A stretch of DNA of 29,879 nucleotides from a virus (Duplodnaviria > Heunggongvirae > Uroviricota > Caudoviricetes). A program made the position numbers and the translations under genes. Position 1 is the first letter of the stretch. Every line of letters begins with the position of its first letter. The notes below the pieces were generated by a model that was given only the letters and a program-made list of their open reading frames with translations, was not told the origin of the DNA and made no database searches. The DNA lies in the IMG/VR virus record IMGVR_UViG_2537562092_000001, positions 1 through 29,879 of that record; one strand, written 5' to 3'. Below are positions 19,869-29,481 of the stretch, piece by piece.

Positions 19869-20072
19869 AAGAGTCAGCAATTACGCCAGCGTGTAGCCGC
19901 TGAGACAGATCCAATTCGCGCAGCATTCCTCTTGGGGCAGATTAGCAAACAGGTAAGCCTTGCTCCAAAACCAAAGAAAGCCATCAAGCCAGAGCCGGAA
20001 GTACGTGGTGGCGGTGCTGATGCGAAACAAGACGAATTCAACAAATTATGCCCCGGCGCAAAAATCGAATAA
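19869..20072 (+). pseudogene. 3' fragment of the phage gene upstream of coat (possibly scaffolding protein), fused to the IS fragment
   Basis: Only one open frame exists here (...ISKQVSLAPKPKKAIKPEPEVRGGGADAKQDEFNKL...), ending 11 bp before the coat start. Scaffold identity is inferred only from P22-like gene order. Confidence 0.3.
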
Positions 20073-20083
20073 GGAAAAGATAA

Positions 20084-21355
20084 ATGCCTAACAATCTCGA
20101 CAGTAACGTCAGTCAAATCGTTCTGAAAAAATTCCTTCCGGGTTTTATGTCAGATTTAGTTCTGGCGAAAACCGTAGACCGTCAGTTGCTGGCAGGTGAA
20201 ATCAACTCCAGCACTGGCGATAGCGTTAGCTTTAAACGTCCGCATCAATTCTCATCCCTCCGTACTCCCACTGGTGATATTTCAGGGCAAAATAAAAACA
20301 ACCTGATCTCAGGTAAAGCTACGGGGCGTGTAGGTAACTACATCACTGTTGCTGTTGAATATCAGCAACTGGAGGAAGCGATCAAGCTTAACCAGCTGGA
20401 AGAAATTCTCGCGCCGGTTCGCCAGCGAATCGTTACCGACCTTGAAACAGAGCTTGCTCACTTCATGATGAATAACGGTGCGTTGTCACTTGGTAGCCCC
20501 AATACTCCAATCACCAAATGGTCTGATGTTGCGCAGACGGCATCTTTCCTGAAAGACCTCGGCGTTAATGAAGGTGAAAACTATGCTGTAATGGATCCAT
20601 GGTCTGCACAGCGACTTGCTGATGCGCAGACTGGTTTGCACGCTTCAGATCAATTGGTTCGTACTGCATGGGAGAATGCACAGATCCCAACCAATTTTGG
20701 CGGCATTCGCGCACTGATGTCTAATGGGCTTGCCTCTCGTACGCAGGGGGCATTTGGCGGAACACTGACAGTCAAAACACAGCCAAATGTTACCTATAAC
20801 GCAGTTAAAGACTCATACCAGTTCACTGTAACATTGACCGGAGCGACAGCCAGCGTTACAGGTTTTCTGAAAGCTGGTGATCAGGTTAAATTCACCAATA
20901 CCTACTGGCTGCAACAGCAGACCAAACAGGCGTTGTATAACGGAGCCACACCAATTAGCTTCACTGCAACGGTTACTGCTGATGCTGATTCAGACGGCAG
21001 TGGCGATGTGACGGTTACGCTTTCTGGTGTTCCGATTTATGACACTACAAACCCGCAGTACAACTCTGTAAGTCGTCAGGTAGCGGCAGGCGATGCCGTA
21101 TCTGTAGTAGGCACTGCTAGCCAGACAATGAAGCCAAACCTGTTCTATAACAAGTTCTTCTGTGGACTTGGCTCTATCCCACTGCCGAAACTGCACAGTA
21201 TTGATTCTGCTGTTGCAACATATGAAGGTTTCTCCATCCGCGTACATAAATACGCAGATGGCGATGCCAACGTGCAAAAAATGCGCTTCGACTTACTGCC
21301 TGCATATGTGTGCTTTAACCCTCACATGGGCGGTCAGTTCTTCGGTAATCCGTAA
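20084..21355 (+). CDS. Major capsid (coat) protein, P22/Sf6-like
   Basis: 423-aa ORF directly upstream of gp4- and gp10-like genes. The size matches the Sf6-type coat. It does not match the P22 gp5 sequence as I recall it, so the call rests on synteny and size. Confidence 0.65.
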   Translation: MPNNLDSNVSQIVLKKFLPGFMSDLVLAKTVDRQLLAGEINSSTGDSVSFKRPHQFSSLRTPTGDISGQNKNNLISGKATGRVGNYITVAVEYQQLEEAIKLNQLEEILAPVRQRIVTDLETELAHFMMNNGALSLGSPNTPITKWSDVAQTASFLKDLGVNEGENYAVMDPWSAQRLADAQTGLHASDQLVRTAWENAQIPTNFGGIRALMSNGLASRTQGAFGGTLTVKTQPNVTYNAVKDSYQFTVTLTGATASVTGFLKAGDQVKFTNTYWLQQQTKQALYNGATPISFTATVTADADSDGSGDVTVTLSGVPIYDTTNPQYNSVSRQVAAGDAVSVVGTASQTMKPNLFYNKFFCGLGSIPLPKLHSIDSAVATYEGFSIRVHKYADGDANVQKMRFDLLPAYVCFNPHMGGQFFGNP

Positions 21356-21397
21356 TAACAAGGGGCTTACGCCCCTTTTATGTTTTAAGGAAACAAT

Positions 21398-21583
21398 ATG
21401 GATCGCATGAGTGTATTCCTTGCCGCAGATAACGAATCCGGGCATGTACAGGCCGTTATCGCAGAAAAAGACTTCCAGTTTTTCGAAAAGTTGGGCTTTG
21501 TTGCCTCAGTTGATGAATTGAAACCGACCAGTAAGCGAGCTCGTAAGGCGGCAGACAATGGCAACAGTACTGACAAAGGGTGA
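21398..21583 (+). CDS. Small hypothetical phage protein between coat and gp4-like genes
   Basis: 61-aa ORF with a plausible RBS (aaggaaacaatATG); overlaps the gp4-like start by 26 nt. Coding status uncertain. Confidence 0.35.
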   Translation: MDRMSVFLAADNESGHVQAVIAEKDFQFFEKLGFVASVDELKPTSKRARKAADNGNSTDKG

Positions 21584-28767: not shown

Positions 28768-28856
28768 CTTTGCAAACACCAGGAACGTGCAAAAACCAAA
28801 TATGTAGAACGCAATATTCATCATATCTCTGTGCATAAATCCTCCGTAACGGATGG

Positions 28857-29150
28857 TTATCTGCTGTCTTTTTTATATAGCTCCTTGAGCGTATCAAAGA
28901 CAATTTTCTTAACCATATCAGATTGTTGTTCTGCCATACGCTCTGCATCGTCAATGTAAACTGATGCAGAGCTTTGTTTAGCCAATGATTCTTCAATCGC
29001 TGCAATTATCTCTGAGTTCAGCGACCTGTTATTCATCTTCGCACACTGTTTAATTTTCGCGTGGAGTTCATGCGGAAGTCTCAAGTGAAACTGTGCCTCG
29101 TCGTATTTGCTGTACATCCTTGATGCCTCACCAGTTGGGTGGAATGGCAT
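28857..29150 (-). CDS. mnt: Mnt-like ribbon-helix-helix repressor (Arc/MetJ superfamily)
   Basis: C-terminal NDAERMAEQQSDMVKKIVFDTLKELYKK closely matches P22 Mnt (NDAERLADEQSELVKKMVFDTLKDLYKK). An N-terminal RHH segment is present. The true start is probably the internal Met at about 29117 (MYSKYDEAQFHLRLP...). Confidence 0.8.
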   Translation of the reverse strand: MPFHPTGEASRMYSKYDEAQFHLRLPHELHAKIKQCAKMNNRSLNSEIIAAIEESLAKQSSASVYIDDAERMAEQQSDMVKKIVFDTLKELYKKDSR

Positions 29151-29238
29151 CGTAACCTACTGGATAAATACTCAATAGTACCATTTCGGTATGCAATCTC
29201 TTCATGGTTGCATCATATCATTCGTCTGGAGCAATGAA

Positions 29239-29481
29239 ATGTCAGATATCACCGCAAATGTTGTGGTAAGCATGCCTTCGCAACTCTTCACTATGGCGCG
29301 TTCTTTTAAAGCCGTAGCTAATGGCAAAATTTATATCGGTAAAATTGACACTGACCCGGTAAATCCTGAAAACCAGATTCAGGTTTATGTGGAGAACGAA
29401 GACGGCTCTCACGTTCCTGTTCCGCAACCAATCATCATTAATGCTGCTGGATATCCGGTATATAACGGACAGATTGCCAAG
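29239..29481 (+). pseudogene. Tailspike (P22 gp9-like) N-terminal head-binding domain, truncated after codon 81 by IS2
   Basis: [81 protein letters not shown] is near-identical to the P22 tailspike N-terminus. The next base (29482) is the first base of the IS2 terminal repeat. Confidence 0.85.

Follow-up and report, generated by a model that had tools for sequence, protein, structure and literature searches.

How can a prophage that is unable to make phage still carry an unbroken series of virion genes? This question is raised by a window of 29,879 nt, by which we mean the whole stretch of DNA analysed (IMG/VR record IMGVR_UViG_2537562092_000001, positions 1 to 29,879). A sequence-only reading of it had offered two answers, a very recent inactivation or the retention of the virion module for another role. 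We consider it highly probable (roughly 90%) that the virion block is what an Sf6/P22-type prophage has left behind at the tRNA gene argW in one clone of E. coli, that this leftover is decaying normally, and that its reading frames are open through the youth of the damage. More exactly, a P22-like prophage of the Sf6 type (Lederbergvirus) would have integrated in argW of a commensal or clinical clone, and the block would be its late (virion) module; the decay appears to be at an early stage, with two lesions that would mark the present version.

The claim that nine consecutive virion genes are uninterrupted and stand in P22 order was confirmed, as nine plus-strand ORFs without internal stops occupy positions 20084-28767 of the window. 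Their family matches (Pfam/PHROG) are far above chance, with E-values from 1e-42 to 1e-301, and their lengths equal those of genes 5-13 in the functional phage Sf6, to which the nucleotide identity is about 97%. These genes and the elements next to them are as follows.

20084 to 21355, plus strand: coat protein (P22 gp5 / Sf6 gene 5), intact, 423 aa (PF11651, 6e-142; length equal to Sf6 gene 5)
21360 to 21377, plus strand: intrinsic terminator 3' of the coat gene, equivalent to Sf6 't coat' (terminator scan; annotated Sf6 counterpart at the same position)
21398 to 21583, plus strand: 61-aa ORF, homologue of Sf6 gene 6 (phrog_3251, 1.1e-42; length equal to Sf6 gene 6)
21558 to 22040, plus strand: gp4-like tail accessory / head-completion protein, 160 aa (PF11650, 3.1e-74)
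22049 to 23467, plus strand: gp10-like tail hub / DNA stabilisation protein, 472 aa (PF11134, 1.7e-301)
23467 to 24315, plus strand: tail needle (gp26-like) with an Sf6-type knob, 282 aa (PF16532, 6.6e-109)
24315 to 24770, plus strand: gp14-like protein, 151 aa (PF11039, 5.8e-53)
24773 to 25465, plus strand: gp7-like ejection protein, 230 aa (PF25688, 1.8e-134)
25475 to 26770, plus strand: gp20-like ejection protein, 431 aa (PF16928, 4e-78; phrog_2534, 6e-217)
26770 to 28767, plus strand: gp16-like ejection protein, 665 aa (phrog_770, 7e-239; precomputed PF26808 Phage_P22_gp16)
28857 to 29117, minus strand: Mnt/Arc-family repressor gene (immI-type), 86 aa, divergent from the tailspike gene (PF11423 and PF03869, both about 3e-14)

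The P22-family coat, the gp4/gp10/gp26 tail hub and the gp7/gp20/gp16 ejection proteins in canonical order place the block in the Sf6 subgroup of the P22-like phages (Lederbergvirus). It does not belong to a functional, inducible temperate phage: neither the window nor 20 kb of flank has the genes for terminase, portal, full scaffold, lysis, replication and immunity, and complete carrier genomes have none of them at ~100% identity. An Rfam search of the module gave no match. Two reading frames had been missed by the sequence-only reading, namely the Mnt/Arc-family gene at 28857-29117 (minus strand) and an IS600 OrfA::scaffold fusion ORF at 19710-20072.

With Sf6 the remnant also shares the gene order from coat to gp16, the layout in which the tailspike gene is followed by O-antigen modification gene(s), int and the attachment site (attP in Sf6), an integrase that is 99% identical (tblastx, intS) and the 16-bp att core, which in the tRNA-Arg gene argW is identical to the core of Sf6 attP. 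It differs from Sf6 in having a Mnt/Arc gene between gp16 and the tailspike, an unrelated tailspike receptor-binding domain (only residues 1-115 match), gtrABC in place of oac, a diverged needle middle and an IS2 in the tailspike, and in lacking the early, lysis, terminase and portal half. In the needle gene, nucleotide similarity to Sf6 breaks at 23675-23843, with a mosaic boundary at 23843; junction searches on the needle breakpoints of E10 and strain 2-1 showed such joints to be rare and homology to have a common boundary at 23843. The canonical late order 8, 5, 4, 10, 26, 14, 7, 20, 16, (mnt), 9 is that of P22, as are the gtrABC conversion cassette and the tailspike head-binding domain. 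However, the coat and portal type of this prophage is that of the Sf6 subgroup, the integration site is different, and a lone mnt-like gene stands where P22 has a full immI region.

The left end was mapped by a three-way comparison of the window, the complete IS600 of L021 and the full scaffold gene that this prophage has in L022, which gave the following features.

19646 to 19869, plus strand: IS600 5' fragment with the left inverted repeat, a promoter-like site at 19661-19689 and orfA codons 1-53 (1 mismatch in 224 nt against complete IS600)
19866 to 19869, no strand: deletion joint, a 4-nt microhomology (GGTA) common to IS600 nt 221-224 and the scaffold gene
19710 to 20072, plus strand: chimeric in-frame ORF of 120 aa, IS600 OrfA residues 1-53 followed by the C-terminal 67 residues of the scaffolding protein (translation)

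Up to IS600 nt 224 the window follows the IS element, and from scaffold nt ~679 it follows the scaffold gene, GGTA being the overlap, so that the IS600 fragment adjoins the last 67 scaffold codons at 19869; these are all that remains of the scaffold gene at the locus. In the fusion ORF, PF01527 covers residues 3-69 and the scaffold family phrog_648 residues 51-120. L021 and E10 have a complete IS600 at this locus, to which the fragment is identical, and in DETEC-P829 and F8 the fragment is the sole IS600 5' end. Positions 1-19869 are collinear with strain E10 (3 mismatches), where adh, MFS and a TerB/ATPase/helicase island come after a complete IS600. By this comparison the left end is an illegitimate deletion with its left breakpoint inside IS600, not a transposon end. 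A single microhomology-mediated deletion would have run from nt 225 of a nearby chromosomal IS600 to nt 678 of the scaffold gene, and would have removed tens of kilobases, comprising island DNA and the early, replication, lysis, terminase, portal and scaffold N-terminal regions of the prophage. Terminase, portal and most of the scaffold had been described as replaced by an IS600-like fragment; the genes are indeed absent and a 224-nt IS600 piece does abut the scaffold remnant, but a deletion and not an IS replacement accounts for this. A candidate second IS600::scaffold junction in EH031 was rejected, as a coat gene there contains an unrelated, complete IS600. The gp16 allele of the window occurs in 262 assembly blocks. 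The exact fusion-ORF protein is present in 71 blocks of public assemblies; such wide sampling of the junction-bearing clone fits neutrality in a successful clone and also leaves room for a benefit.

The right end is of a different kind.

29239 to 29481, plus strand: tailspike codons 1-81, head-binding domain (translation); the other 542 codons lie beyond IS2, outside the window
29477 to 29481, no strand: left copy of the 5-bp IS2 target-site duplication CCAAG (both copies flank IS2 in L001 and L004)
29482 to 29879, minus strand: first 398 bp of a complete 1331-bp IS2 (terminal sequence; full copy in L001); the window ends inside it

In JH590605.1 a run of N begins at window-equivalent 29882. 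The break falls exactly after codon 81, at 29481/29482, as had been claimed, yet the right end of the gene is not lost, since 542 codons follow in frame just past IS2. Removal of IS2 and one duplication copy in silico restored a 623-aa tailspike ORF, with a P22-type head-binding domain (PF09008, 4e-67) and PDB matches to the N-termini of the Sf6 and P22 tailspikes, and an uninterrupted, 100% identical copy is present in E10, L021 and L022. The full length of 1331 bp, the CCAAG on both sides and the restored ORF identify a simple insertion, and the second lesion would thus be a single IS2 transposition into tailspike codon 81. The view that IS elements removed both ends therefore does not hold, because the left end is a deletion joint with its breakpoint inside IS600 and at the right nothing was removed. 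An IS-bounded composite element was rejected for the same structures, a 224-nt IS600 fragment with an internal breakpoint and an IS2 with its own duplication.

Past the tailspike the prophage goes on intact with gtrC, gtrB, gtrA, intS and attR in tRNA-Arg (argW), and RefSeq takes its gene names here from the K-12 orthologues in KplE1. An intermediate attL between island and prophage was not found; only an outer 15-nt copy exists, on the cscB side. The surviving parts would be coat through gp16, mnt, both tailspike halves, the gtrABC O-antigen glucosylation cassette, intS and attR.

This intact right side is what an otherwise complete prophage, merely crossed by the window at two IS insertions, would also display: a simple IS2 insertion, then tailspike, gtrABC, intS and attR. 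In that case terminase, portal and a complete tailspike should be contiguous, and half of this was seen, in that the tailspike is contiguous past IS2 while neither the locus nor the complete carrier genomes contain terminase or portal. The IS600 piece on the left stops inside the element after only 224 nt, and the 19.6 kb upstream are collinear with non-phage island DNA in E10. Using the whole Sf6 genome as tblastx query against the window and two 49-kb loci, we found no phage genes left of 19860, and the only real matches outside the module were IS911/IS3-family elements and integrase. When the terminase-portal-scaffold segment of the same prophage was compared with 5426 complete genomes, the best match was 99.6%, there were no carriers among the best 40 matches, and no copy at about 100% was found in complete carrier genomes. 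The terminase and portal genes, which the sequence-only reading had proposed to look for at relocated positions, are thus neither in the flank nor, at ~100% identity, in complete carrier genomes, and the chance of a complete prophage interrupted only by two IS elements is practically nil.

The recency of the damage can be judged from its carriers and sisters. Nine of the 12 carrier sequences spanning the module show 0-1 differences over 9836 nt; the remaining three come from short metagenome or Logan contigs, of which two seem to be chimeric. The metagenome scaffolds L013 and L015 were left out for extra mismatches that probably reflect assembly chimeras (L013 contains an N-gap, and the differences lie in scaffolded or terminal parts). 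The module differs from LR882057 at 3 positions in 8594 nt, and flanks of sister strains diverge by 1-3 SNPs per 10-39 kb, about 1 SNP per 10 kb. The same prophage nevertheless exists in at least five other damage states among these sisters, as follows.

LR882057: IS2 joined to a truncated coat gene (N-terminus lost), and a second IS2 at tailspike codon 154 with its own duplication CGAAA
E10: only fragments of the needle, gp14 and gp16 genes (needle', gp14', 'gp16)
L021: island joined to needle nt ~418
L022: an internal deletion from the coat C-terminus through the gp10 N-terminus, while terminase, portal and scaffold are still there
L023: immunity region joined to coat nt ~236

The tailspike is intact in E10, L021, L022 and L023, and the gtrABC-intS end is kept in every decay state. 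The near-identity of the same-junction carriers over the 9.8-kb module, together with different independent lesions in sisters at a flank divergence of about 1e-4, bears out very recent inactivation, and so many decay states against so few SNPs mean that structural lesions outpace point mutations. The nine frames would then be open because the time was too short for point mutations to build up, and not because the module is kept.

The other answer, domestication, holds that the coat-to-ejection module is selected for a host function, for instance particle-like structures, the use of ejection proteins as effectors, or the exclusion of related phages. In its favour, each of the nine frames is intact and of full length, the junction-bearing clone is common among public assemblies, and defective prophages can reportedly be under purifying selection, as Bobay, Touchon and Rocha are said to have described in PNAS in 2014. 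However, an IS-bounded intact module is not conserved in related genomes. Close relatives have lost or truncated coat, gp4, gp10, needle, gp14, gp7, gp20 or gp16 in varied combinations: sisters at ~1e-4 divergence lost the coat N-terminus (LR882057) or the coat C-terminus to the gp10 N-terminus (L022), everything up to the needle is gone in L021 and E10, and gp14-gp16 in E10. A domesticated machine (GTA, tailocin or similar) would have its gene set conserved intact across related lineages, and here it is not. Furthermore, procapsid formation in P22 needs portal and scaffold, and since both are missing no P22-type procapsid can form. Sequence diversity is nearly nil as a basis for showing constraint, carriers and sisters together having about 4 SNPs (2 synonymous, 1 nonsynonymous, 1 intergenic), too few for a dN/dS after inactivation. 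The dN/dS against Sf6, 0.13 overall, reflects phage-era history and was rejected as a test of post-inactivation constraint, because that divergence dates almost entirely from functional phages. The module also lacks the late promoter and antiterminator, and the coat terminator is still there. The loss of this promoter and of the Q-type antiterminator would leave the module probably almost silent; the promoter-like site at 19661-19689 could give transcription of the fusion ORF and the coat gene, and the IS600 promoter would drive at most these two, up to the retained coat terminator. The states of the sister strains already largely refute domestication, and we regard it as extremely improbable.

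The same variety of lesions invites the idea that the crippling was repeated because selection acted against a harmful prophage or tailspike, instead of neutral decay. There are at least six independent lesion sets, and numerous distinct deletions stand against a handful of SNPs. Two independent IS2 hits in the tailspike lie 219 bp apart, at codons 81 and 154, in opposite orientations and each with its own target duplication; by our own rough estimate for uniform insertion, about 0.06 genes would be expected to be hit independently in both lineages (repeat-copy upper bounds of 9 and 39 places). On the other hand, only two IS2 events are involved, IS2 insertion into phage P1 was reportedly non-random in the work of Sengstag and Arber from 1983, the tailspike is intact in several states, and deletional bias and IS activity in prophage or island DNA are expected without selection. 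We therefore think this driver very improbable. Hardly better is the prospect that the dense lesions reflect selection disabling virion or tailspike production with gtrABC-intS kept, or that the virion genes are a selected recombination reservoir for superinfecting Sf6-like phages, both of which we hold to be very improbable.

The KplE1 / CPS-53 cryptic prophage of E. coli K-12 is likewise defective, lies at argW and has intS followed by yfdG and yfdH (gtrA, gtrB). It is not known to keep a P22-type virion module, whereas the present remnant, which is much younger, has 11 virion genes left. Researchers have found that one attP is common to Sf6, HK620 and KplE1 (PMC8787464), and that Kapi1 of E. 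coli MP1 is a functional P22-like temperate phage which sits at the 3' end of argW and uses and modifies the O-antigen (PMC8787464). Kapi1, unlike our remnant, is complete and inducible, and the likeness noted here is one of type, site and O-antigen.

Defective P22-like prophages, the argW variable island, IS hits in prophages and microhomology deletions are already well known, and the locus carries little weight for new biology. The part likely to be still functional and useful to the host is gtrABC, and the persistence of gtrABC-intS, as in K-12 KplE1, agrees with the common view that it is the lysogenic-conversion cargo that persists. One prophage in at least six early states of decay, within a clone at about 1 SNP per 10 kb, offers a clean and datable example, and it shows that for a crippled prophage open frames are to be expected under the null, and are not evidence of domestication.

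The virion genes of this remnant are nine adjoining ORFs that occupy 20084-28767 on the plus strand without a single internal stop; they are listed below together with a minus-strand gene that the sequence-only reading had overlooked.

Genes of the module, in order, with family matches
first of nine ORFs, + strand: coat, PF11651 (P22 coat family), 6e-142
second of nine, + strand: small ORF of the Sf6 gene-6 type, phrog_3251, 1e-42
third of nine, + strand: gp4, PF11650
fourth of nine, + strand: gp10, PF11134, 2e-301
fifth of nine, + strand: needle with Sf6-type knob, PF16532
sixth of nine, + strand: gp14, PF11039
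seventh of nine, + strand: gp7, PF25688
eighth of nine, + strand: gp20, PF16928
ninth of nine, + strand: gp16, phrog_770, 7e-239
28857-29117, - strand: Mnt/Arc-family gene, 86 aa

All nine ORFs have exactly the lengths of their counterparts, genes 5-13 of Shigella phage Sf6, and nucleotide identity to Sf6 across the block is about 97%. With the family matches, this places the proposed run of nine uninterrupted virion genes in P22 order far beyond chance. Inside the needle gene, nucleotide similarity to Sf6 resumes at 23843, within 2-3 nt of the start of the truncated needle gene in two remnants, one in strain E10 at argW (L005 17838) and one in strain 2-1 at sbcB-dacD (L007 12720). These two remnants are unrelated and have different upstream partners, and about 900 genomes match solely from ~23843 onward, which suggests a mosaic or recombination boundary that recurs at this position.

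That IS elements removed both ends of the module, as had been proposed, is wrong; IS pieces do adjoin it on each side. On the left, base-by-base comparison shows that the IS600 match runs from the left inverted repeat at 19646 through IS600 nt 224 at 19869, and that the scaffold gene match starts at 19866, so that GGTA is common to both; the joint was verified against a complete IS600 at the same chromosomal position (sister sequence L021) and the complete scaffold of the same prophage (sister sequence L022). Because the breakpoint lies inside IS600, it is not a transposition end, and the left boundary is a microhomology-mediated deletion joint. Window positions 1-19869 are collinear with E10 with 3 mismatches, and E10 continues with a complete IS600, an alcohol dehydrogenase, an MFS transporter, a TerB-N/ATPase/DEAD-helicase island and then prophage DNA; thus the rest of IS600, that island DNA and the prophage's left half were all lost in one deletion. 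It would have removed at least ~19 kb of island DNA and, by comparison with Sf6, roughly 25 kb of prophage, an estimate assembled from several strains since no single one holds the whole ancestral segment. Both flanks keep the order and orientation found in E10, a geometry that indicates deletion rather than inversion.

By chance, the deletion created an in-frame chimera of 120 aa (ORF 19710-20072), in which the N-terminus of IS600 OrfA (HTH) is followed by the coat-binding C-terminus of the scaffold, with an IS600 promoter-like site and a ribosome-binding site upstream. Gene callers predict this exact fusion ORF in 71 assembly blocks from public data, with isolates, gut metagenomes and Logan among the sources. 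In sister strains, a three-gene cluster encoding a TerB-N-domain protein, an ATPase and a DEAD/DEAH helicase lies between IS600 and the prophage (L009 28221-32001 plus L005 1-2329 in E10; L003 5710-11534 in LR882057), and the window lineage lost it in the same deletion; the cluster is possibly a defence system.

On the right, the tailspike gene starts at 29239 and is indeed broken after codon 81 by an IS2 terminus at 29482. In the complete carrier genomes DETEC-P829 (L001) and F8 (L004), which are identical to the window here, this IS2 is 1331 bp long and flanked by 5-bp direct repeats of CCAAG, and removing it with one repeat copy restores an uninterrupted 623-aa tailspike, which is present with 100% identity in E10, L021 and L022. 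The remainder of the tailspike thus lies in frame past IS2 (C-terminal 542 codons at L001 30819-32447, outside the window), followed by gtrC, gtrB (yfdH), gtrA (yfdG), intS, whose integrase is 99% identical to that of Sf6, and tRNA-Arg, with a 16-bp att core identical to the annotated Sf6 attP core. The layout matches that of Sf6 exactly (tailspike, O-antigen modification gene, int, attP), except that gtrABC here replaces oac. Thus the prophage is intact on its right side, and the window merely stops inside a simple IS2 insertion. In part, the apparent tailspike loss is an artefact of the break in the source scaffold: window positions 9710-29879 match JH590605.1 (GCA_000242035.1) with 100% identity, and the N-run of that scaffold, an assembly gap inside IS2, starts about 2-3 bases past 29879.

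The receptor-binding part of the tailspike had no matches in Pfam, PDB sequences or phage-database DNA. It was found in 8 of 5426 complete E. coli genomes, each time adjoining the same gtrC type, in strain 2-1 at a different integration site; in all five of the eight whose context was inspected, the copy lies in a defective prophage.

The missing terminase and portal genes appear to be lost and not relocated. A tblastx search of the whole Sf6 genome against the window and 49-kb loci found no phage genes left of 19860, where the sole matches were IS911/IS3-family elements. When the terminase-portal-scaffold segment of the same prophage (from L022) was searched against the 5426 complete E. coli genomes, no match exceeded 99.6%, and neither the carriers DETEC-P829 and F8 nor the sisters LR882057 and E10 were among the top 40 matches; a copy moved elsewhere should head the list at about 100% identity.

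Intact frames in a crippled prophage had been taken to mean either very recent inactivation or retention of the module for another role. Retention is not supported: the closest relatives do not conserve the module, and each lineage has lost a different part.

Decay states of the same prophage in sister sequences
LR882057: coat N-terminal two thirds lost, with an IS2 that lacks a target duplication directly next to coat nt ~805; second, independent IS2 at tailspike codon 154, duplication CGAAA, opposite orientation
E10: nothing left of the module except the needle knob part, the gp16 C-terminal part and 87 bp of gp14; tailspike intact
L021: needle nt ~418 joined to island DNA
L022: terminase, portal and full scaffold kept; 21050-22191 (window positions) deleted, taking coat C-terminus, 61-aa ORF, gp4 and gp10 N-terminus
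L023: coat nt ~236 joined to immunity region

Very recent inactivation is supported by these differing lesions and by near-identity. Twelve carrier sequences were examined, and nine of them show 0-1 differences from the window within whatever part of the 9836-nt module they span; the rest are short contigs from metagenomes or Logan, and two of these three seem to be chimeric. Related strains are separated by 1-3 SNPs per 10-39 kb in the core DNA on the flanks, and the several prophage states share identical gp16, Mnt, gtr and IntS proteins. Only 4 SNPs separate the window-type module from its relatives (two synonymous, W215R in gp7, one intergenic), too few to obtain dN/dS among strains; the value against Sf6 is 0.13 and records selection during the phage life of the lineage. 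With the commonly cited E. coli clock rates, 1e-7 to 1e-6 substitutions per site per year or thereabouts, a divergence of ~1e-4 suggests an age between decades and a few centuries. In that time, 9.3 kb evolving neutrally would be expected to gain well below one disabling point mutation, so on this dating the intact reading frames would be the null expectation.

The two IS2 hits in the tailspike gene of sister lineages, at codon 81 (CCAAG) and at codon 154 (CGAAA; L003 22145-23475 in LR882057), are simple and independent insertions, 219 bp apart and in opposite orientations; they could reflect an IS2 hotspot, selection against the tailspike, or coincidence.

As to activity, the Sf6 map would place the Q-type antiterminator, late promoter and qut in the half that was deleted. 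Transcription of the fusion ORF and the coat gene could start from a predicted sigma-70-like site at 19661-19689, within the IS600 fragment, but a predicted coat terminator, with a counterpart in Sf6, is kept at 21360-21377. The genes past coat would be essentially silent, and gtrABC is probably the part of the remnant still working.

A 15-nt direct repeat of the argW 3' end (L001 5619-5633, ~100 bp left of window position 1, and 36684-36698) brackets ~31 kb of CP4-type island remnant (yeeU, yeeS-like, antirestriction), IS debris and prophage remnant, so that the window lies wholly inside a composite argW island adjoining the csc sucrose genes. The stretch left of the prophage is rich in IS elements, and there a full-length Rfam match to isrC, an Hfq-binding sRNA, has an IS3-family fragment on one side and an IS66 fragment on the other (13018-13140, minus strand, 150 bits vs a gathering score of 39). 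The window also encodes an intact autotransporter of 1165 aa (7385-10882, minus strand), with VirG-insertion, PATR, autochaperone and beta-barrel domains, in a segment of low GC (0.37-0.45) that has IS30 and IS3 elements on its flanks; E10 carries it too, and DETEC-P829 and F8 have a group II intron region in its place. According to Moritz and Welch 2006 (cited in PMC8787464), the argW-dsdCXA region is a highly variable island.

No intact phage with this mosaic of Sf6-like virion genes, a lone mnt, the rare tailspike receptor domain and gtrABC was found in the collections searched. The remnant belongs to the Sf6 subgroup of P22-like prophages, and its attachment site is common to Sf6, HK620, KplE1 and Kapi1 (PMC8787464). 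It shows no departure from known kinds, and is decaying toward the state of KplE1/CPS-53 of K-12, which keeps intS-yfdGH.
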